In this document: positions 26,212 to 55,447 of the stretch, piece after piece | Numbering within the stretch: position 1 is the stretch's first letter | Layout of the letters: every line of letters begins with the position of its first letter | Source of the DNA: Candidatus Omnitrophota bacterium | GTDB lineage: Bacteria; Omnitrophota; Gorgyraeia; Duberdicusellales; 4484-171 | Assembly: GCA_024231025.1 (NCBI GenBank) | Contig: JAAEQW010000120.1 | Span: 66,324-130,323 of the forward strand | Direction of reading: 5' to 3' | DNA length: 64,000 nucleotides | Notes under the pieces: generated by a model | Database searches by the model: none | What the model was told of the DNA's origin: nothing | Seen by the model: the letters and a program-made list of their open reading frames with translations, nothing else | Made by a program: the position numbers and the translations under genes

Positions 26212-27516
26212 TCATTTTCCTCTACCTAAACCAATATATTCAAATCCAGCGGCAATTAGCTTTACTGGATCAAGCATATTTCTTCCATCAGCGATTAGGG
26301 CGTTGTTCATGGTTTTTTTGATTTTTTTGAAATCAAGTGCTAAAAACTGCTTCCACTCAGTTAAAAAACAAACACAATCGCACCCCTTAACTGCCGCATA
26401 CGCATCTTTGGCAAACATGATTTTTTTACTTTTAAATATATTTTTTGCCTCATTCATAGCTTTCGGATCATAAAGAGTAAGCTCTGCTCCTTCTTTCTCT
26501 AATGTTTTAACGATATTGATTGACGGAGCAAAACGCATATCGTCGGTATTGGGCTTAAAAGATAAACCCAATATGGCAATTTTTTTACCTCTAATGACCC
26601 ACAGCCTCTCTCGTATTTTTTCGGTAAAATAAAGTTGTTGTTCGTGGTTGATTTTTGTAACTTCTTTAAGAAAGGAAAAATCATAGCCTAGCTTTTTAGA
26701 TATATAAGCAAACGCTTCAACATCCTTTGGAAAACAAAAACCCCCCCACCCGATACCTGCGGATAAAAAATCTCCTCCGATTCTTTTATCAAGCCCCATC
26801 GCTTGAGATACTTTTTCGACATCGGCACCGGCCTTATCGCAAACCCTTGAAACAGCATTAATAAAAGAAATTTTACTGGCTAAAAATGAATTTGAAGCAT
26901 GCTTAATAATTTCGGCAGTGTTAACATCGGTAACAATTATTTTGGTCTTTAATTTAGAGTATATTTGGCGCAAAATTGTTTCAGCCTGTTTTGAATCAAC
27001 TCCCAAAACTATTCTATCCGGGTAAAATGAATCATGCACTGCTTTGCCTTCTCTTAAGAATTCCGGGTTAGAAGCGACATCATATGTTGCATCACCTTTT
27101 TTGTATCTTGCAATAGTCTCTTTAATTTTTTTACCGGTTTGAACCGGCACCGTTGATTTTTCAACAATCAATTTATATGAATTAAGATTTTTAGCAATTA
27201 CTCTGGCTACATCCTCAATCGCACTTAAGTCGGCAGAACCATCACTCTTGGGAGGAGTGCCTACAGCAATAAATATTACTTTTGATTTTTTTATGCTGTT
27301 ATCCAAAGAGTCCGAGAAAACAAGCCGCTTGCTATTGGCAGTTTTCTTAACCAGCGTAGCAAGCTTAGGCTCATAAAAAGGCATTTTTCCTTTCTTTAAG
27401 AGTGCGATCTTTGCGCTATCATTATCAACACAAATAACACTATGGCCCATTTGCGCAAAACAAGCCGCTGCAACCAAACCAACGTGCCCCCCGCCAATTA
27501 CACAAATTCTATGCAT
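26212..27516 (-). CDS. ugd: UDP-glucose 6-dehydrogenase
   Basis: RICVIGGGHVGLVAAACFA, catalytic GGFCFPKD, C-terminal UDP-binding region. 434 aa. Confidence 0.8.
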   Translation of the reverse strand: MHRICVIGGGHVGLVAAACFAQMGHSVICVDNDSAKIALLKKGKMPFYEPKLATLVKKTANSKRLVFSDSLDNSIKKSKVIFIAVGTPPKSDGSADLSAIEDVARVIAKNLNSYKLIVEKSTVPVQTGKKIKETIARYKKGDATYDVASNPEFLREGKAVHDSFYPDRIVLGVDSKQAETILRQIYSKLKTKIIVTDVNTAEIIKHASNSFLASKISFINAVSRVCDKAGADVEKVSQAMGLDKRIGGDFLSAGIGWGGFCFPKDVEAFAYISKKLGYDFSFLKEVTKINHEQQLYFTEKIRERLWVIRGKKIAILGLSFKPNTDDMRFAPSINIVKTLEKEGAELTLYDPKAMNEAKNIFKSKKIMFAKDAYAAVKGCDCVCFLTEWKQFLALDFKKIKKTMNNALIADGRNMLDPVKLIAAGFEYIGLGRGK

Positions 27517-27518
27517 TT

Positions 27519-29669
27519 TTAATAATCCTTTCTTGCCCCTTCGTAACTATGGTCAAACCCTAAATGAAGATCAGGAAAATCTTTTAAAGTGAAAACTAAC
27601 CAAAAAGTAAACTTTCTATCTTTGTTTTCTTTCTCATCTACATCAAGTCCAACATCCATCCACCAACAATGCAAATCGGTTCTGAGAGCATATTGCTGCT
27701 CCTTAAATCTTCTATCTGTATTCTCATAACGAATATAATTTGTAAATCTAACCTTTGGTGTTAGCTGATACTCTAGGCCCAAAGTACTCTGGCTTGAATC
27801 GCTACGCGTGTATCTTTGCCCTAAAGATATTGAATATTTATTTTCTTCGGGATCGCTAAGTGTTAGGTCAACATTTACCCCTCTAAATGCACCAAGAGAA
27901 AAGTCATATTCTGTATCGGAATTTAGAGCCAATCCCGCTCTAGGGTAAATTTCTAAATCAGCCTTTATATTTTTAAAGTAACTCCCTTTTCCCTCTTCAT
28001 GAATCGCATATTCAACCGCCGGACTAAAATACAAAAATGTCCAAATTTCTTCTTGCGATTTCGCCTGCAGTTTATTGTCCAATTTAAAAATCACGCTTTC
28101 CTTCCTGACTAAGTTGTCTGTTCCGTCAAACTGGAAAAGATCAGAATTAGGAATTGTCGGCTGATGAATATAATCATACTGCAAGGTTGGCGTTAGGACA
28201 TGGCGCATAGAATCAACTGTCTTGCCAAGAATATTACCATCAACTCTAAACGTTTTATAAAGTTTAGTGCTTAAAGACGCTCCTGCGGCAGGAGTTGTGC
28301 GAGTAACATTCTCTCGGCTCGAAGAATCTTTAGAATAAAACGTGGTATAATTTCCGATGTAAGGATTAAAATACAACCACCCTACTTTTTTAGCATAGCT
28401 TAAAGTATTATGGGAATGCGCACGCATTGCATCGTGATCTACGTCAGAATTGGCAGTCTTATAACTTAAATTGCCTACTGCTGTATTTGACTCAAAGTAA
28501 AAACTGCTATTGCCTAAATTCTGCTTATAAAAATCATATTCCAATTGTGGCAGGTATTCTGTTTCACTCCAAAAACGATTCATTCTTTTCTGGCCCAACA
28601 AAGATAATGACGAGTTAGAAAAAGAATAATCAATTAAACCATAGCTCAAAGGATGGGGCTGAACTTCATACTCACGATAAAAAAAATCTTTAATGAAATA
28701 CTCATCTGAGAACTTATTGAATTCACTGGTTATTGACATCTTCGGTGAAATTTGCCAGCAGTAAGCTCCTTGAGCCTTGTAACGATCATCTTCTAAATAC
28801 TTATCCGATACCGCAGCACGCCCGGGATATATCTTAAAAAGATCGTTTCTCTTGTTGCTTCGGTACATCTCATCATCAAGATAATAATAATTGATTAGCG
28901 CCTCACCAAAATTTTTACTCTCCATCTTATGGCTTATACCTTGGCCGATTCCACGATCTTCATAAAAATCAAGATGGACCTTACCCCTATGCTCATCATT
29001 AATATGATAGCGCCAGCGAGTTAACATGTAGTTGCCCCAATCGCTCTCCTTTCCGGGTGAAATCTCAAATGGAAATGAATTATCATTCAACGGCATAACG
29101 CAATACGGTATATAAAAGAGTGGGATTTTACCCAATTTCAAAACCATGTTCTTAGCTATAATCTTTTTCCCCGGAAAAGCCACAACTCGCTTTGCTGTCA
29201 TTCGATAATGAGGCTTTTCGGCACTGCAAGTCGTAATATGGCCCCGCTTTAGAATATACTTATCGTCACCAATTCTTTGAACCTCATTAGCCTTTGCATA
29301 TAAAGGAGGAAACTCCATTTCGGTTCCAAGCATTTGCGCTTTGTTTGTGTTAAAGTTATATAAAACATTATCGCCATAGATGGTTGAGCCATCTCTTACT
29401 ATCCTTATATTTCCAGAAAGATTAGCAATATGCGTATTTGCGTCATAATCAGCGCGGTCGCAAAACAATTCAGTCCCTTGATATTTCATCTTCACGTTAC
29501 CGCAAACCTTCACTTTGCTTTCACCCTGAGCATAACTGATCTCATCACCATCAATCACAACTGGTAAAATTTCTTCTTCGCAAAAAACAGTTGGTAGACC
29601 AAAGACTAAAGACCAAAGACCAAAGACCAAAAATAACTTTATAACTCGTGATTTTCTTTGATAATTCAT
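27519..29669 (-). CDS. lptD: LPS-assembly outer membrane protein LptD (OstA family)
   Basis: Signal peptide, N-terminal OstA/LptA-like beta-jellyroll (DGDEISYAQGESKVKVCGNVKMKYQGTELFCDRADYDANT...IRIVRDGSTIYGD), long C-terminal beta-barrel with alternating aromatic residues. 716 aa. Confidence 0.7.
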   Translation of the reverse strand: MNYQRKSRVIKLFLVFGLWSLVFGLPTVFCEEEILPVVIDGDEISYAQGESKVKVCGNVKMKYQGTELFCDRADYDANTHIANLSGNIRIVRDGSTIYGDNVLYNFNTNKAQMLGTEMEFPPLYAKANEVQRIGDDKYILKRGHITTCSAEKPHYRMTAKRVVAFPGKKIIAKNMVLKLGKIPLFYIPYCVMPLNDNSFPFEISPGKESDWGNYMLTRWRYHINDEHRGKVHLDFYEDRGIGQGISHKMESKNFGEALINYYYLDDEMYRSNKRNDLFKIYPGRAAVSDKYLEDDRYKAQGAYCWQISPKMSITSEFNKFSDEYFIKDFFYREYEVQPHPLSYGLIDYSFSNSSLSLLGQKRMNRFWSETEYLPQLEYDFYKQNLGNSSFYFESNTAVGNLSYKTANSDVDHDAMRAHSHNTLSYAKKVGWLYFNPYIGNYTTFYSKDSSSRENVTRTTPAAGASLSTKLYKTFRVDGNILGKTVDSMRHVLTPTLQYDYIHQPTIPNSDLFQFDGTDNLVRKESVIFKLDNKLQAKSQEEIWTFLYFSPAVEYAIHEEGKGSYFKNIKADLEIYPRAGLALNSDTEYDFSLGAFRGVNVDLTLSDPEENKYSISLGQRYTRSDSSQSTLGLEYQLTPKVRFTNYIRYENTDRRFKEQQYALRTDLHCWWMDVGLDVDEKENKDRKFTFWLVFTLKDFPDLHLGFDHSYEGARKDY

Positions 29670-29671
29670 GA

Positions 29672-30583
29672 TTATTTTGAAAGTTTTTGTTTTGCTAAAA
29701 GACCCGCTCCAATTAAGCCGGCATTCTTTAGCTTAGCTTTTACTATTTTTGTATTTTTTGCCTGGGGCCACATTGCTTGCTTTTTTATAATTTTTAGAAG
29801 CATCGGTTTAAACACGCTCATCGCCCCGGAAACGCCTCCGCCTAAAACTATTTTATCAGGATCAAAGACATTTATCATCCCTGAAAGATACATGCCAAAA
29901 GCATAAGAAAACTCTTGCCAAACCTTAATCGCAGCCGTCTCCCCTTCTTTAGCTTTTAAGAAAATATCTTTTACTTTATTAAGAGTCTTTGCTTTTCCTT
30001 TTTTAAGTTGCGCATAACGCAAGAGTAAGTATTTATTACCCAAAAATGTCTCGATGCAACCATACCCACCGCACCCACACTTGGTGCCGGTTAAACTTAT
30101 CGGAAAATGCCCTAACTCTGCGGCACTTGTACTACCCTCTAAAATACGACCGTCCAAAATAACGGCACTGCCCAGCCCCGTTCCTAAAGTAAAAAATAAC
30201 ACTCGTTTTGCCTTCCTTGCCGCACCAAGGCAGTTTTCGGCTAAAGCGAAAACATTAGCATCATTATCCACAAAAACTGGAAGCTTTAATTCCTTTGCTA
30301 ACACCTTCTTAAGCGGATAATTTTTCCAACCATTAATATTGGGTAGGTAGTAAATAAACCCTTTTTTAATGTCAACTATTCCCGGAACCCCAATTCCAAC
30401 GCCTTTTATATCATATCCACTTAAATCAGCAACCAGTGATTTTATGCTTTCAATAAAGATCTTTTTGCTCTTTAGTCGATCTGAAACAAAAAGCTTCTTT
30501 CTCAAAACTCTACCGCTTGAGGTGACTACCCCCGCCTTAATGTATGTTCCGCCCCAATCAATACCTAAAAAATAGTCCATCAA
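29672..30583 (-). CDS. ROK family sugar kinase (glucokinase-like)
   Basis: N-terminal LGIDWGGTYIKAGVV (actin-like ATPase phosphate-1), ROK zinc motif CGCGGYGCIE. Confidence 0.75.
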   Translation of the reverse strand: MMDYFLGIDWGGTYIKAGVVTSSGRVLRKKLFVSDRLKSKKIFIESIKSLVADLSGYDIKGVGIGVPGIVDIKKGFIYYLPNINGWKNYPLKKVLAKELKLPVFVDNDANVFALAENCLGAARKAKRVLFFTLGTGLGSAVILDGRILEGSTSAAELGHFPISLTGTKCGCGGYGCIETFLGNKYLLLRYAQLKKGKAKTLNKVKDIFLKAKEGETAAIKVWQEFSYAFGMYLSGMINVFDPDKIVLGGGVSGAMSVFKPMLLKIIKKQAMWPQAKNTKIVKAKLKNAGLIGAGLLAKQKLSK

Positions 30584-30669
30584 CTTATTATTCTACCTAT
30601 ATAGCAACCCTTCTGTCAACCATCAACTCAGAATAATCGAAAATAAAATGCCTTCTGTTGCTTTAGTGC

Positions 30670-31245
30670 CTACTTCGCCTCTCTCTTCAATAAATAATCA
30701 CACTCTAAATTAAGCCTACTGCCAACTCTTTTATTCTTTAAAGTAGTATGTTTATAAGTAAAAGGGATTACGCTAACAGTAAAAACCCTTGCTATGACTT
30801 TTTTAACTGTAAGAGATACACCGTCTATCGCTACTGACCCATTCGCAATAATAAATTTTTTTAACGGCTGTGGTAAGTCAAACTCTAAATTACAGCAATC
30901 ACTGCGTTTTATGATTCTGCGCAATTTAGTCTCTGAATCAATATGGCCAAGAACAAAATGTCCACCTAGCTTATCATTCGCCTTCAACGCAGACTCTAAA
31001 TTTACTAAATCACCGCGTTTAAGAATTTTTAAAGTGGTTCTGCTTAAGGTCGGACCAACTGCTTCAAAAAACATTAAACCATTATCTTTATATATTAAGG
31101 TAAGGCACACACCATTTACAGCGATGCTATCTGAAATATGAGCATCCTCGCAAATAAGCTTAGAATGAACCCCTAGCGTAACTAGCGGCCCCTTCTTGAT
31201 GACCTTCTTTAGTGAACCTATTTCTTTAATTATACCTGTAAACAT
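30670..31245 (-). CDS. ribE: riboflavin synthase alpha subunit
   Basis: MFTGIIKEIGSL N-terminus, duplicated lumazine-binding halves with GxSLTV motifs (NGVCLTL / DGVSLTV). 191 aa. Confidence 0.8.
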   Translation of the reverse strand: MFTGIIKEIGSLKKVIKKGPLVTLGVHSKLICEDAHISDSIAVNGVCLTLIYKDNGLMFFEAVGPTLSRTTLKILKRGDLVNLESALKANDKLGGHFVLGHIDSETKLRRIIKRSDCCNLEFDLPQPLKKFIIANGSVAIDGVSLTVKKVIARVFTVSVIPFTYKHTTLKNKRVGSRLNLECDYLLKREAK

Positions 31246-31302
31246 TTTTTTGATTATTAGTGTAAGAATTATATCAAAAGAAGAAACAAAAAGCTATATG
31301 TA

Positions 31303-31330
31303 TTTATACACAAAAACCCTTTATTTTCAA
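31303..31330 (-). promoter_or_regulatory. candidate sigma70 promoter for ribE (-35 TTGAAA at 31330..31325, 16-nt spacer, -10 TATAAA at 31308..31303)
   Basis: Minus-strand reading ttgaaa-ataaagggtttttgtg-tataaa about 60 nt upstream of the ribE ATG. No FMN riboswitch motifs recognised between it and the start codon. Confidence 0.3.
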
Positions 31331-31474
31331 TGGTTTTTTGTGTTTTAGGGAGTTAGGATTATGTGAAATTAATACCAGTAAAAAGACGGCGCTCATAAAT
31401 CCTTGAGGGGCAATTACTTATGTAGTGTCGGTATGGTTTAACTTTGCTCGGGCGGGACCCCGCTGATGCGGGGG

Positions 31475-31518
31475 ATTCGGCTAAAGAGCTTTTCTTCCTT
31501 TCGTTGAAAAACTCTAGC
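31475..31518. repeat. 44-bp direct repeat copy 1 (attcggctaaagagcttttcttcctttcgttgaaaaactctagc)
   Basis: Perfect 44/44 identity to 31590..31633. Each copy can fold (minus-strand RNA) into a 9-bp stem AGAGUUUUU/AAAAGCUCU with loop CAACGAAAGGAAG. Confidence 0.85.
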
Positions 31519-31589
31519 TTTACATTCGTCCGGCTGCCTGAATACTGAGGAAATTTCTTCGATATTTCCACAGAGCAGCTCGGACATTA

Positions 31590-31633
31590 ATTCGGCTAAA
31601 GAGCTTTTCTTCCTTTCGTTGAAAAACTCTAGC
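31590..31633. repeat. 44-bp direct repeat copy 2
   Basis: Identical to 31475..31518. The two copies are separated by 71 bp (115 bp copy-to-copy) that contain a long imperfect hairpin (31528..31585). Confidence 0.85.
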
Positions 31634-31639
31634 CTCATT

Positions 31640-31673
31640 AAAAAACCCCGTCTCGGTTTTTCACGAGACGGGG
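31640..31673 (-). terminator. rho-independent terminator for the lysine-rich small gene
   Basis: Perfect 10-bp GC-rich stem CCCCGTCTCG/CGAGACGGGG (31646..31655 / 31664..31673) with 8-nt loop. On the minus strand it is followed by a U6 tract (31640..31645) and lies 20 nt after the TAA stop at 31693. Confidence 0.75.
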
Positions 31674-31692
31674 CTATATCACTTAAGATGTC

Positions 31693-31827
31693 TTACTTCT
31701 TTTTTTTCTTTGCAACTTTCTTCTTTGCAACTTTCTTCTTTGCAACTTTCTTCTTTGCAACTTTCTTCTTTGCTACCTTTTTCTTAGCAACCTTTTTCTT
31801 TGCTGCTTTCTTCTTTTTAACTGCCAT
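31693..31827 (-). CDS. small lysine-rich repeat protein (44 aa: MAVKKKKAAKKKVAKKKVAKKKVAKKKVAKKKVAKKKVAKKKKK), histone-H1-tail-like / nucleoid-associated candidate
   Basis: Hand translation of the minus strand. ATG 31827..31825 is preceded by a strong RBS (AGGAGGTGG, about 6 nt spacing). 45 codons to TAA, with the intrinsic terminator immediately downstream. Below the 60-aa cutoff of the ORF track. The plus-strand ORF 31619..31882 (poly-F) is its antisense shadow. Confidence 0.6.
   Translation of the reverse strand: MAVKKKKAAKKKVAKKKVAKKKVAKKKVAKKKVAKKKVAKKKKK
31711..31815. repeat. 15-bp tandem repeat array (tgcaactttcttctt x4 perfect + 3 degenerate units) inside the lysine-rich gene
   Basis: Direct inspection. 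Units at 31711, 31726, 31741, 31756 are identical and encode the KKKVA pentapeptide repeat. Confidence 0.9.
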
Positions 31828-31880
31828 CTTTCCACCTCCTTTTATTGTTCGACCTTTTGTCGAAACTTATCTACAATTTT

Positions 31881-31909
31881 AATTTAACAAATTTAAAAAT
31901 GAATGTCAA
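31881..31909 (-). promoter_or_regulatory. candidate sigma70 promoter of the lysine-rich gene (-35 TTGACA 31909..31904, 17-nt spacer, -10 TAAATT 31886..31881)
   Basis: Consensus -35 hexamer with ideal spacing in an AT-rich region, about 50 nt upstream of the ATG. Confidence 0.4.
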
Positions 31910-32007
31910 CTCTTTTTCAAAAATTTTTTCCATTTTTTTAAAAAAACACAACATATTGTGATTTTAAAAAATTTAACTAACCACTTTTTGTTTTTTATTT
32001 TTAGTAA

Positions 32008-32379
32008 TTATTCGTGGGATTTTTGTTTCGGAATGCGCACGCGCTTAGCATCGCACCAAAGATTCGAAAGATCGTAGAACTCTCTCGCTTCATGAGTAAA
32101 GATATGAATTACCACATCGAAAAAATCAACAAGAAGCCAGCGATCAAGTTCATCGTCTTCGCGGTGATGAACCTTAAACCCTTGCTTACTTGCCTGCTTA
32201 ATAATTAGATCATATATTGCGCGCGCCTGACGAGGAATTTGAGCTGAAACAATAACAAAATAATCACAAAAGGTTGCAACACCTCTTACATCCAAAATAA
32301 CAGGATCCTCTGCTTTTTTAATGGCAGCGATGTTAACTAGCTCAATTGCCAAATCTTTACTAGTAAATGTTTTTCTCAT
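32008..32379 (-). CDS. rsfS: ribosomal silencing factor RsfS (Iojap family)
   Basis: LDVRGVATFCDYFVIVSAQIPRQARAIYD...WLLVDFFDVVIHIFTHEAREFYDLSNLW matches the RsfS/DUF143 core. Confidence 0.8.
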   Translation of the reverse strand: MRKTFTSKDLAIELVNIAAIKKAEDPVILDVRGVATFCDYFVIVSAQIPRQARAIYDLIIKQASKQGFKVHHREDDELDRWLLVDFFDVVIHIFTHEAREFYDLSNLWCDAKRVRIPKQKSHE

Positions 32380-32440
32380 TCTTAAAAACTCATAAATTTT
32401 TAATTTTGAATTGTGGATTATGCATGCCTATAATGTTTTG

Positions 32441-32495
32441 GTCATTGTAGCTTGGTTATTGTTTGTGGTTTGGTATTTGTAATTTGTAATTTTTT
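32441..32495. repeat. 'ttggttatt' repeat family, half-copy (cattgtagcttggttattgtttgtggtttggtatttgtaatttgtaat)
   Basis: Shares the 24-bp core attgtag(c/t)ttggttatt(g/a)tttgt with 34696..34720. Intergenic between the M16 peptidase and rsfS. Confidence 0.6.
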
Positions 32496-32511
32496 CATAA
32501 CCATTATAATG

Positions 32512-33777
32512 CTATGCTGTTCTTATAATGTTCGTTATTTCTTTTTCTGTATCTGCGGCCATATCGCCAACACACCCAACACAAATATTATGAATGTTAA
32601 ATATCTTCCGGGCAACCTCACTTATCTGTTGCGGCGTAATTTGAGTTATCTTCTCCTTGATTTGCTCAACCGAATTTATTCTACCGGTTTTTAGGTGACT
32701 TTCGGCGTTAAAGAACATCCTTCCCTCGGGGCGCTCTAGGACCATTACGCTCTGGCCAAAAAAGAAGTCTTTTGCTCTTGCCAATTCTGAAAGAGAAATT
32801 TTCTTCTCTTTAATTTTTTTTAGTTCTTTGATAATTCTGCCCAAGGCAAGTTTAATCCTGCTCTTGTCTAATCCAATATGAATAATAAACGCACCACTAT
32901 CTCTGTACTTTCTAACTTCAGTAGATATATCATAACAAAGAGGCCTTTTCTCTCTTACTTCTTCAAATAAGCGGCTACTCATATTCGCCCCCATAATAAT
33001 ATTTAATAGTTCGCTAGTAAGCCGGTCGCTACTTAAATAAGATGGGCTTCGAAACCCTACACAAAGATGTGCCTGTTCTAACTTTTTCCTTTCAACATCA
33101 ATGTGCATGCCCGTCAATGAGCCCGGGGATAGCAACTGATGCTTTACCTTTGCGGATTTACTCTTTATTTTTTTGTTTATCAGATTAACTAAGGCATCTT
33201 GTGCAAAGTCACCGCTACAAGAAACAACTATGTTAGAAGGCTGATAATACTTATCTTTGAAATTTATCAAATCTTTACGAGTGATCCTCTCAACGCTTGC
33301 CATCTCACCAGCTACCTCTTGCCCCAATTGATGCTTTGGCCAAAGTAATTTATCAAGCAACATAACCACTCGTGAAGTGGGAATATCATTGTACATCTTT
33401 ATTTCTTCTAAAATAACTCTTCTCTCCTTCTCTACGTCATCTGCCTTTAAAGATGGGCATAAAACCATATCCAAAAGAATATCCAAAGTTATATCAAGAT
33501 TTTTCTTCAGAAAATGAGCATAAAATCCTGTGCTTTCCTGCGAAGTAAATCCGTTCAAAGCCCCGCCGCGACCCTCAATTTCTCTTTTAATTTTACGATA
33601 AGAGTAATGCTTGCTACCTTTAAAAAGAAGATGTTCTAGGAAATGAGCAATCCCCTTTAAATTATTTGTCTCGTAACGGCCACCCACCTTTAAGAACACT
33701 CCGAGAGATGCAGTATCCCTACCCTTAAAAGGAGTAAAAACCAAGTCGGTTCCGTTAATATTTATTACTTTATGCAT
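32512..33777 (-). CDS. M16 family zinc peptidase (pitrilysin-like)
   Basis: Inverted zinc motif HxxEH: GIAHFLEHLLFKGSKHYS plus downstream E. 421 aa, single M16/M16_C unit. Confidence 0.75.
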   Translation of the reverse strand: MHKVININGTDLVFTPFKGRDTASLGVFLKVGGRYETNNLKGIAHFLEHLLFKGSKHYSYRKIKREIEGRGGALNGFTSQESTGFYAHFLKKNLDITLDILLDMVLCPSLKADDVEKERRVILEEIKMYNDIPTSRVVMLLDKLLWPKHQLGQEVAGEMASVERITRKDLINFKDKYYQPSNIVVSCSGDFAQDALVNLINKKIKSKSAKVKHQLLSPGSLTGMHIDVERKKLEQAHLCVGFRSPSYLSSDRLTSELLNIIMGANMSSRLFEEVREKRPLCYDISTEVRKYRDSGAFIIHIGLDKSRIKLALGRIIKELKKIKEKKISLSELARAKDFFFGQSVMVLERPEGRMFFNAESHLKTGRINSVEQIKEKITQITPQQISEVARKIFNIHNICVGCVGDMAADTEKEITNIIRTA

Positions 33778-34568: not shown

Positions 34569-34595
34569 GACACCCGCCTGCCAATCCGACGGGCA

Positions 34596-34750
34596 AGCAA
34601 GTTACAATAACCAAGTTACAAGTTACAATAACCAAGCAATAACCAATTACCAAATTCGAATAACCAAATTATTTGATTATTAAAATCTTGATTATTGGTT
34701 ATTGTAGTTTGGTTATTATTTGTATCTTGCATCTTGTTTCTTGGTTATTT
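34596..34750. repeat. long imperfect palindrome of 'aataaccaa' (x6, left) / 'ttggttatt' (x4, right) units inserted between trpB and trpA
   Basis: Left arm 34596..34665 carries aataaccaa repeats. Right arm 34694..34750 carries their reverse complements. The resulting 176-bp trpB-trpA spacer is atypical (these genes usually abut). Confidence 0.7.
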
Positions 34751-38914: not shown

Positions 38915-38958
38915 ATTGTAATATATTTATTAGGCACTAAATTTATATCTTATATCAA

Positions 38959-39400
38959 CTAAAAACTAAAAGCTAAAAACGTAAAACCATAACTTAAAAC
39001 TTAAAACCTGTTCTTCCCTTTAAGAGTCAAAATACTAGATCCTAATATTTTTGACAACTCGTTAGTTTCCCTCAATAAAAATTCTAACTGGGGACTCTCT
39101 ATCTTCTTGGCATCTTTCAATAATCCAAACCAATACAGTGTTTCATTAGCTGATTTTAATGAATAACTAAAAAAATTAGTAAAATCTTTTTTGGAACTAG
39201 AAGCTTGAGCCTCAACAATATTCGCACCTATAGATGTCGCTGATCTTATTAACTGTTTTGCGATTATTTGATTCGACAAATCCCTTGGTAAGCTATCTAT
39301 AAAGTTAATAACTTTTATGGAATATTGATAAGCTCTATCTTTTAATTTAATTTTGAATTTTGAGCTTTGGTTTTGCATTTTTCGTTTTTAGTTTTTCGTT
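38959..39400. mobile_element. TIR-bounded small element (~440 bp) whose only cargo is a four-helix-bundle (23S rRNA IVS-protein family) gene; parent of the MITE-like copies at 42586..42754 and 55331..55444
   Basis: Left terminus 38959..38991 (ctaaaaactaaaagctaaaaacgtaaaaccata) is near-identical to the left arm of the 55331 element and is the reverse complement of the right terminus 39369..39400 (ggttttgcatttttcgtttttagtttttcg). The gene's ATG lies inside the right arm. Confidence 0.55.
39001..39378 (-). CDS. four-helix-bundle protein (23S rRNA intervening-sequence protein family)
   Basis: 125 aa. Family hallmark LIRSATSIGANIVEAQASSSKKDFTNFFSYSLKSANETLYW (R.S..SI..NI.EG...S..eF..fl.iA.gS..E). 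Strong AT-rich flanks. Confidence 0.7.
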   Translation of the reverse strand: MQNQSSKFKIKLKDRAYQYSIKVINFIDSLPRDLSNQIIAKQLIRSATSIGANIVEAQASSSKKDFTNFFSYSLKSANETLYWFGLLKDAKKIESPQLEFLLRETNELSKILGSSILTLKGKNRF

Positions 39401-39431
39401 TAATATTAATAAAAGTTTTAAGATCATACAA

Positions 39432-42574: not shown

Positions 42575-42585
42575 ACTCTTCAATT

Positions 42586-42754
42586 AAAAACGTAAAGCTA
42601 AAAGCGAAATCCCGCACTTTAATATATTTTATTTGCGGGACCCCGATAGACGGGGAACCATAATTCAAAATTCAAAATTTCTTTCCGGAATAAAGAGTTT
42701 ATTTACTTTTAAATTCTACGCTATGGCTTTGCATTTTGCGTTTTTAGTTTTTAG
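42586..42754. repeat. MITE-like inverted-repeat element, copy A (with two extra internal GC hairpins)
   Basis: Arms aaaaacgtaaagctaaaagcg (left) and tacgctatggctttgcattttgcgtttttagtttttag (right) match copy B and the termini of the four-helix-bundle element. It retains a decayed MQSHSVEFKSK* remnant of the cargo gene's start. The right arm supplies the last ~5 codons and stop of rpmE. Internal hairpins at 42611..42639 and 42641..42655. Confidence 0.65.
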
Positions 42755-42953
42755 TTTTTTTGCCGTACTTTTTGTAAAACTTGTCTACTCTTCCTTCTGA
42801 ATCAACAAACTTCTGTTTGCCGGTAAAAAAAGGATGGCACTTCGAGCAAATTTCCACATTAATTGTCTTTCGTGTAGAACGAGTGTGGACCACATTTCCA
42901 CAAGCACACATAATTGTGCACTGCTCGTATTTTGGATGAATTTTATCCTTCAT
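42744..42953 (-). CDS. rpmE: 50S ribosomal protein L31
   Basis: MKDKIHPKY...[12 protein letters not shown]...[13 protein letters not shown] (zinc-ribbon CxxC...CxxC L31 type A). Confidence 0.9.
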
Positions 42954-55330: not shown

Positions 55331-55444
55331 TAGCTAAAACCGTAAAGCTAAAAGCGTAAAACCATAATTCAAAAATTAAAATTTTTCCGGATAATTTCAA
55401 ATTTTACGCTATGGTTTTACGTTTTGCGTTTTTAGTTTTTAGTT
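55331..55444. repeat. MITE-like inverted-repeat element, copy B (minimal form, ~114 bp) filling the gap-pgk intergenic space
   Basis: Left arm gctaaaaccgtaaagctaaaagcgtaaaaccata and right arm tacgctatggttttacgttttgcgtttttagtttttag are imperfect inverted repeats of one another and match copy A and the four-helix-bundle element termini. Confidence 0.65.
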
Positions 55445-55447
55445 ATT

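Follow-up and report, generated by a model that had tools for sequence, protein, structure and literature searches.

Intervening sequences (IVSs) of 23S rRNA that bear an open reading frame (ORF) are an old finding, and the guess that they are mobile is just as old. To our knowledge, no function has been assigned to IVS proteins since 1993, and IVS mobility is still a guess. In the Coxiella IVS, a 28-bp terminal stem accompanies an S23p ORF, RNase III cuts inside the stem, and tandem GACAGAT heptamers lie directly upstream of the start codon (PMC4990558). ORFs of the same family, PF05635, have also been found in 16S and 23S insertions of Candidate Phyla Radiation (CPR) bacteria (PMC11270868). 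Here we describe a PF05635 gene in a cassette that lies outside rRNA, between murA and trpG, in a 64,000-nucleotide stretch of a Candidatus Omnitrophota genome (contig JAAEQW010000120.1; the whole stretch is called the window below), together with two gene-less copies in the same window and related loci in other genomes.

The cassette is ~480 bp long as judged from the limits of its inverted repeat (38939..39418, minus strand) and takes up most of the murA|trpG spacer. Its sole ORF (39001..39378, minus strand), taken in the first-pass annotation of the window to be an IVS-family gene of 125 amino acids (aa), indeed encodes a member of that family. The product matches PF05635 (82 bits, cut-off 33.8; E = 4.3e-23) and TIGR02436 (96 bits, cut-off 24; E = 1.4e-27), the S23p/IVS-protein profiles, and is modelled as a four-helix bundle. 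The gene had been thought to be framed by 33-bp inverted termini. The inverted repeat is present, but it is longer than that; the arms at 38957-39006 and 39351-39400 are 50 nt each and 80% complementary, and with one gap allowed the repeat grows to ~69 nt per side, roughly 38939-39418. In gene orientation, the 5' arm (39351..39418, minus strand), delimited by the inverted repeat and by autocorrelation at lag 7, consists of A-rich phased heptamers, (NNNAAAA)n. The 3' arm (38939..39006, minus strand), delimited by the inverted repeat and the heptamer phasing, consists of T-rich ones, (TTTTNNN)n. TRF reported a period of 7 at 38957-39007, at 39366-39401 and in both gene-less copies, the units being degenerate. 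The arms reach into the gene at both ends: the start codon and the first nine codons (MQNQSSKFK) make up the 28 nt on the inner side of the 5' arm, and the 3' arm opens with the last codon and the stop. At up to three mismatches, a 25-mer taken from the arm hits four sites in the window, compared with none in 100 shuffles.

This anatomy resembles that of ORF-bearing 23S rRNA IVSs, with their S23p ORFs of the Leptospira, Coxiella and Xanthomonas type. In both cases a protein of the same family is encoded within the element and complementary ends form a terminal stem around the ORF, and the phased heptamers of the 5' arm correspond to the heptamers that precede the start codon in Coxiella. The rRNA IVSs lack a promoter of their own and are expressed via host transcription; in the window copy we found no promoter-like site in the 5' arm and no terminator-like site in the element. 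A mobility that has long been suspected and never demonstrated is a further likeness. The cassette differs from the rRNA IVSs in lying between two protein genes of an operon, murA and trpG, and not inside an rRNA helix; an Rfam search of the window matched no family anywhere, rRNA included. It also differs in having gene-less derivatives in other mRNA spacers. We use the name IVS-type cassette because the element has the anatomy of the Coxiella IVS, but sits in an mRNA spacer.

We then asked how the murA|trpG spacer looks in relatives. Scanning metagenome contigs with the MurA protein gave relatives ~60% identical, whose gene order equals that of the window (rho-rpmE-prfA-prmC-murA-trpG-trpD-trpC-trpF). 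In four of them (L125, L127, L128 and L129) the site is unoccupied, with a murA|trpG gap of -4 to 33 nt versus 517 nt in the window. As murA is directly followed by trpG in these syntenic relatives, the cassette is an insertion, and the suggestion that it occupies the slot in which trpE would precede trpG does not hold. In two further relatives the spacer is longer (118 nt at 6264-6381 in L126 and 85 nt at 6270-6354 in L124). One of these spacers contains an A-rich run of AATTAAA-type heptamers and the other a different small inverted repeat; they may represent repeated hits on the same spacer, or remnants of older insertions.

Arm-like sequence, searched for with blastn-short throughout the 64-kb window, is confined to three places: 38.9-39.4 kb, 42585-42759 and 55331-55446. 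The second and third are gene-less copies on the minus strand, in line with the miniatures that the first-pass annotation had placed between prfA and rpmE and between gap and pgk. The copy at 42585..42759, delimited by sequence reading, blastn-short and alignment, fills the rpmE|prfA spacer. The copy at 55331..55446 fills the entire gap|pgk spacer, from 3 nt past the gap stop codon to 1-2 nt before the pgk start codon. Pfam assignments agree with the gene names given earlier to the neighbours: a MurA-type enolpyruvyl transferase and TrpG at the gene, L31 and RF-1 at the 42.6-kb copy, and GAPDH and PGK at the 55.3-kb copy. All of these genes, like the cassette, are on the minus strand. Each of the three copies folds as a single long hairpin (z = -3.6 for the full element, and -4.0 and -5.3 for the 55.3-kb copy).

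Both small copies keep the 5' arm with ~10 start codons, a remnant of the last ~5 codons, and the 3' arm. The start remnant in the 42.6-kb copy reads MQSHSVEFKSK*, as had been noted before. The gene-end remnant is GGAAAGAAA..TTTTGA in the small copies versus GGGAAGAACAGGTTTTAA in the full copy. The small copies are 90% identical to each other (103/114) and 82% identical to the full copy, and have in common a deletion junction and loop, TCCGGAAA, which are not found in the full copy. Judged from these remnants, the small copies are internal-deletion derivatives. The two lie 12.6 kb apart, and that they have junction and loop in common is most simply explained if a single deletion derivative was later copied to another spacer. 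The outer 5' arm of the 42.6-kb copy encodes the last codons and the stop codon of rpmE (...YGKKTKN* compared with ...YGKK* in the relative L130). In the 3' arm of the same copy lies a 46-nt insertion (42610..42655, no strand assigned), whose removal restores the alignment with the 55.3-kb copy. It consists of two small G+C-rich hairpins (TCCCGCA...TGCGGGA and CCCCG...CGGGG) that are unique in the window. A comparable G+C-rich hairpin breaks the 3' arm of the full element at another locus, L085, and the insertion is reminiscent of the very small mobile repeats that are said to occur inside Nostoc heptamer arrays.

Relatives of the window protein number in the thousands. When one genome per GTDB species was scanned, at least 561 relatives were confirmed, of which the best 80 were kept; the statistics below refer to 82 loci from ~10 phyla. 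The hosts include Omnitrophota, Planctomycetota, Atribacterota, Patescibacteria, Chloroflexota, Ignavibacteria, Zixibacteria, Gammaproteobacteria and two archaea. Concerning phage carriers, none was found in IMG/VR, and GenBank phages gave two distant matches. The flanking-repeat score exceeded the 99th percentile of random positions in 87% of the loci, and its median was 36 versus 16 for the remaining ORFs of 80-170 aa at these loci (p = 3e-34). At most loci, too, the inner 5' arm consists of the gene's own first nine codons. Against a background of 76% for adjacent genes, the upstream neighbour was co-oriented at 76 of 80 loci (p = 7e-6), the downstream neighbour at 71 of 78 (p = 7e-4), and both at 66 of 76 (p = 6e-8). 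The median gaps to the neighbours are 34 and 59 nt, and the arms therefore fill the spacers. The cassette is thus found almost always in tight intra-operon spacers and in sense orientation.

The sites themselves are diverse, with neighbours that fall into ~100 different Pfam families per side. Among five close relatives, the gene is co-oriented in five spacers (rsmI|metG, porA|porB, atpE|atpF, ribBA|unknown and ligT|recA), and arms of the same type are present in both contexts that were read at the sequence level, rsmI|metG and porA|porB. These comparisons show that the gene and its arms are one unit recurring at unrelated sites in unrelated genomes, that the two travel together and that the family is old and very widespread. 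At the rsmI|metG locus L001 (2939-3030), ~30 nt of extra sequence lies between the 5' arm and the conserved N-terminal codons, and the annotated ORF, at 135 aa, is 10 codons longer; it looks as if an arm segment has been duplicated or a heptamer block inserted. L002 (GCA_000405645.1, ASOY01000001.1, 3513-4901) has the same rsmI|element junction as L001, but its metG has been shortened to 172 aa and the next gene, a rhomboid gene, is on the opposite strand, which points to a rearrangement, or to a chimeric assembly, immediately downstream of the element.

Extra arm-like sequences were present in the flanks of 24 of the 82 loci, and these match the resident full copy and not a universal consensus. 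Clear gene-less hairpins lie in nearby spacers of co-oriented genes at L073, L089, L091 (two), L101, L105 and L079; the one at L073 keeps the last ~7 codons of the gene. Gene-less copies are two to three times denser within 2.5 kb of the full copy than at 2.5-10 kb (20/37 versus 33% expected, p = 0.007). The cassette gives rise to internal-deletion copies, and these occupy further spacers and do so preferentially nearby. We considered whether the arms might instead be regulatory or terminator hairpins of the host, independent of the gene, into which the gene had landed. Gene-less hairpins do fill operon spacers, and a second, unrelated long hairpin is present in the trpB|trpA spacer of the window. 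Nevertheless, we find this idea hardly credible: the small copies hold remnants of both gene ends and the L073 copy likewise keeps a gene-end remnant, the inner 5' arm coincides with the first nine codons at most loci, syntenic relatives have no hairpin at murA|trpG, and the element contains neither an Rfam match nor a terminator-like site.

The structure of the arms was examined in 35 aligned arm pairs. An invariant A occupies each seventh column of the 5' arm, and an invariant T each seventh column of the 3' arm. Across the 82 loci, the autocorrelation of A (or T) peaks at lag 7 (0.34-0.35) and lag 14 (0.24-0.27), compared with ~0 in random windows. The three positions between the A-tracts differ among genomes and co-vary between the two arms. 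Pairing was found in 76.1% of cells versus 54-56% with the partner slid by one column, and the arm covariation score was 0.147 versus 0.115. The arms lack a conserved terminal sequence; they are degenerate phased heptamers that differ between genomes. Two ideas about the arms were tried and rejected. Heptamers with TAA, TGA or TAG might have served to stop translation in three frames, but the 5' arm scored 2.21 frames versus 2.11 in shuffles. The polarity, A-rich first and T-rich last, is not universal either; it applies to the window clade only and is absent in Planktothrix and Xanthomonas.

The primary structure of the window protein contains the motif RxxxSxxxNxxE, located within IRSATSIGANIVEAQ. 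The motif described for the family is GxxRxxxSxxxNxxE (PMC3936711); in 22 relatives R45, S49, N53 and E56 are invariant, and the leading G is absent. An AlphaFold model of the monomer (pLDDT 91) has four helices (residues 12-27, 34-59, 63-90 and 96-119), with residues 1-8, encoded by the 5' arm, disordered. With Foldseek, the closest structures were 2RLD (E = 6.6e-7, TM-score 0.76-0.87) and 2GSC, followed by Avd of diversity-generating retroelements (DGRs), here that of a Bordetella phage, both on its own and in its complex with reverse transcriptase and RNA (4DWL/8UBE, TM-score 0.68-0.78). The 2RLD and 2GSC entries each contain five chains of the same sequence, and 2GSC has been described as a homopentamer. 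Avd has the same four-helix-bundle fold but is only 15-16% identical to the window protein. Avd binds an RNA stem-loop in the DGR ribonucleoprotein and is needed for reverse transcriptase (RT) activity (bioRxiv 10.1101/2023.10.23.563531). Because this fold relative binds an RNA stem-loop, we infer nucleic-acid binding for the window protein as well, with the heptamer arms of its own cassette as the most plausible target.

The ratio of nonsynonymous to synonymous substitution (dN/dS) between copies was 0.03-0.10, and synonymous sites (dS) were saturated. The protein is thus under strong purifying selection. Recent horizontal transfer, which a protein identity of 73-81% across phyla might have suggested, was rejected on the basis of these same values. 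The heptamer phasing has been kept where silent sites have been randomized, and is therefore a sign of function; long-term purifying selection has acted on this phasing as well as on the protein.

The odds, in our judgement, lie slightly in favour of an IVS-type hairpin cassette outside rRNA, one that combines read-through expression, pairing and processing of the arms, and binding of the arrays by the protein. The promoter-less gene would owe its expression to read-through of the host operon, and the arms, once transcribed, would form a ~50-bp stem around the start and stop codons. By analogy with rRNA IVSs, for which excision by RNase III has been demonstrated, RNase III would cut this stem; the cassette RNA would be set free in this way, and the insertion would become tolerable. 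The protein, a putatively ring-forming relative of Avd, which binds RNA stems, would bind the heptamer arrays both of its own arms and of the gene-less hairpins. Candidate routes of copying are slippage, gene conversion or recombination between the heptamer arrays, and the action of an unlinked enzyme.

A number of observations weigh against this reading. With regard to pairing in RNA, shuffling of the partners leaves 73.4% of cells paired versus the 76.1% observed, a value that none of 500 shuffles reached. Because so much pairing survives, the complementarity is mostly that of a generic A4/T4 skeleton, with a modest element-specific part. Stem mismatches are symmetric on the sense strand (164 of the G.U type versus 160 of the A.C type) and give no sign of selection on a one-strand RNA stem, and RNAalifold found no consensus structure. 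Selection on an RNA stem only was rejected for these reasons; as the mismatch spectrum is symmetric, a one-strand RNA stem cannot be named as the selected feature, and a constraint at the DNA level, or recognition of each arm by a protein, would fit the arms equally well. With regard to mobility, no target-site duplication was visible flanking the three window copies or the three copies at L091, where the termini are fuzzy enough for a duplication of 1-2 nt to escape and the flanks cannot be aligned at the nucleotide level with those of the ~60%-identical MurA relatives. The element and its surroundings hold no recombinase, and no transposase, integrase or RT was among the 25 commonest neighbour families per side (143 neighbouring genes; the rest of the ~100 families are unlisted). 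Each exact protein variant that was looked up occupies a single site across many samples, and the ligT|recA site is common to several Planctomycetota. Because synonymous sites are saturated, each variant has one site, and ligT|recA recurs in this way, the full copies look old, passed on mainly by vertical descent and maintained in working order; for recent movement there is indirect evidence only, from the two window copies and their common junction.

Some of the same observations would be expected if the gene were a domesticated, immobile host gene, acting for instance in RNA processing or translation control, with the arms as its own autoregulatory or processing hairpin and the gene-less hairpins as former copies deleted in place. 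The strong purifying selection and the saturation of synonymous sites suit such a gene, as do the single site occupied by each exact protein variant, the ligT|recA site in several Planctomycetota, and arms that enclose exactly the start and stop codons. On the other hand, ~100 unrelated neighbour families per side amount to dozens of independent insertion sites, and syntenic relatives have empty sites. Deletion in place does not account for two small copies 12.6 kb apart with the same deletion junction and loop, nor for plasmid arrays in Dolichospermum, described below, that also lie in frame inside neighbouring genes. We therefore regard a domesticated gene as unlikely.

[quoted passage not shown] Insertion and deletion derivatives stood up to analysis, as did the lack of a transposase in or beside the element. 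Conventional TIRs with a conserved end, a target-site duplication (no direct repeat was seen at any copy read) and active cut-and-paste transposition did not, the last because synonymous sites are saturated and each exact variant has a single site. Compared with MITEs, the element has terminal inverted repeats, several dispersed copies (three in 64 kb) and empty sites, but neither a target-site duplication nor a full-length parent with a transposase. If it were nonetheless an ordinary non-autonomous DNA transposon of the MITE type, its TIRs would be moved by a transposase encoded elsewhere and the gene would be a passenger. Inverted termini, small gene-less derivatives and several copies agree with this, as do small-copy arms that match the resident full copy in each genome and the symmetric mismatch spectrum, which fits a constraint at the DNA level. 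For a passenger, however, it is unexpected that, across phyla and down to 40% protein identity, one and the same gene is always present and always placed alike with respect to the arms, and that the gene is the conserved part while the termini have no conserved sequence. Taking into account also the strong orientation bias, the neighbours free of transposase among their commonest families, and long-term purifying selection, which weighs against a purely parasitic, recently jumping transposon, we consider this alternative improbable.

Short gene-less hairpin elements in operon spacers are known from Neisseria, where Correia elements, short inverted repeats without a gene, are co-transcribed with the flanking genes and their hairpins are substrates of RNase III. 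They end in defined termini of 26 bp and have a TA duplication. The element described here resembles them in being a short hairpin within operon spacers, and differs in having no duplication and no defined terminus, in its phased heptamer arms, and in a parent that encodes a four-helix bundle and not a transposase.

The relationship to Avd raises another alternative by analogy, namely that an unlinked RT or polymerase, recruited by the Avd-like protein, copies the cassette RNA to DNA or adds heptamers at DNA ends or nicks. In its favour are the fold relationship (TM-score ~0.7-0.78), the requirement of Avd for RT activity and its binding of an RNA stem-loop. Arrays that differ in unit number, with local spread in one plasmid, also agree with it. 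The host range overlaps lineages that are reportedly rich in DGRs, namely CPR, DPANN and Omnitrophota. In DGRs, the RNA is bracketed by a long-range duplex involving the 3' end of avd (bioRxiv 10.1101/2023.10.23.563531). The window gene, in contrast, has no RT, template repeat or variable repeat nearby, its neighbours being housekeeping genes, and no RT is among the 25 commonest neighbour families. There is no adenine-specific variation, the A positions being invariant, and no poly-A or other mark of retro-insertion. With an argument that rests entirely on analogy, copying by a recruited RT or polymerase seems to us quite improbable.

More distant members of the family, with ~40% identity, on plasmids of cultured bacteria are laid out in the same way as the IVS-type cassette, with other heptamers that are in many cases perfect. 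Dolichospermum pAfl69 and Nostoc flagelliforme have (TAATTCG)5 and (CGAATTA)5 arms that are 100% complementary, Nostoc punctiforme PCC 73102 has (CAATTCG)n arms, Planktothrix has AATCCCC and AATCGTA units, and Bernardetia has (GATTAGT)17. On Dolichospermum flos-aquae pAfl69 (L207, NZ_CP051207.1), all twelve TAATTCG/CGAATTA arrays of the first 50 kb lie within 6.5 kb (27262-33641) around the four-helix-bundle gene. Several of them are in frame inside genes annotated as helicase, hypothetical protein and DNA methyltransferase, where they encode ITNYELR repeats. Heptamer arrays can thus invade coding sequence, like the Rickettsia palindromic elements. On plasmid3 of Planktothrix agardhii NIES-204 (L205, 1943-2019), a second array of the 5'-arm type (AATCCCC/AATCGTA) lies ~50-60 nt past the 3' arm and ends at the start codon of the next gene. 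The TAACTGA repeats of Beggiatoaceae have the same arrangement, a solo array just before a start codon.

Such genomic arrays have been described from several groups. In cyanobacteria, heptamer arrays are said to occur as short tandemly repeated repetitive (STRR) sequences. TAACTGA arrays are found in Beggiatoaceae, cyanobacteria and Bacteroidetes (PMC4679880), and GGGAATC and GGGGAYT arrays in Xanthomonas and Nostoc, respectively, with 186 GGGAATC arrays, 70 convergent pairs among them, in X. campestris (PMC4692102). Like the arms of the cassette, the intergenic arrays are tandem 7-nt units in spacers that often end just before a start codon; they frequently form convergent pairs, and occur in taxa rich in PF05635 genes. 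They differ in having been treated as stand-alone, and in that the units of the window clade are degenerate (NNNAAAA) and not perfect. A term search of PMC4679880 and PMC4692102 gave no mention of PF05635 or S23p. If arrays and protein belong together, the family member of solved structure, XCC0516 (2GSC), should be flanked by inverted GGGAATC arrays. This prediction was borne out. In X. arboricola and X. sacchari, the XCC0516-type gene is co-oriented between accB and accC, with 30-nt arms of the GGGAATC type that are 87-90% complementary, and its N-terminus, MENRES, is encoded by the array.

The results raise a broader possibility, which we put forward tentatively and with less conviction than the cassette itself. 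PF05635 proteins would be the dedicated partners of genome-wide heptamer arrays (STRR, TAACTGA, GGGAATC and those of the Coxiella IVS), and a gene with inverted arrays would be an autonomous mobile or self-propagating unit without a recognizable transposase. Gene-less hairpins, ORF-less rRNA IVSs, solo arrays and in-frame insertions might then be its non-autonomous progeny, and the ring protein might recognize, and perhaps help to propagate, its cognate heptamer.

In the literature searched, we found no description of the cassette in protein-coding operons or of heptamer-phased arms throughout the family, and none of deletion derivatives or of a link to genomic heptamer arrays. For the heptamer arrays of cyanobacteria, Xanthomonas and Beggiatoaceae, several descriptions exist but none that gives a cause, and the cassette plausibly links IVS proteins to them. 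If one type of element does join the function of IVS proteins, the mobility of IVSs and the heptamer arrays, all three can be tested in such culturable organisms as Xanthomonas campestris, Nostoc punctiforme and Anabaena. It would be a widespread, selfish-looking element with a small helical bundle as its only gene. PF05635 genes in cas loci have been interpreted as a functional association (PMC3936711); genes for a 'four helix bundle protein' in cas, restriction-modification and metabolic operons would instead be read as insertions, not as functional partners. Operon spacers of Omnitrophota, CPR and Planctomycetota may hold such elements, which would affect predictions of operons and of RNA processing.

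Two further repeats were noted in the window. In the same operon as the cassette, a second long hairpin (34593-34749) takes up the trpB|trpA spacer. It is gene-less, and nothing in it is similar to the IVS-type arms. Its arms (34606-34667 and 34688-34749) are 62 nt long and 71% complementary, with units of ~7 nt (CAAGTTA/CAATAAC). Preceded by a small G+C-rich hairpin, it may represent a different element family in its small form. The second repeat is a perfect array of five AGACCAA units (29596-29630) in the first 25 codons of a 716-aa ORF (27519..29669, minus strand). Read in frame, the array would encode a hydrophobic stretch of the FGLWSLVFGL type, for which coding sequence, a mis-called start codon, or a solo array before the true start codon are candidate explanations.

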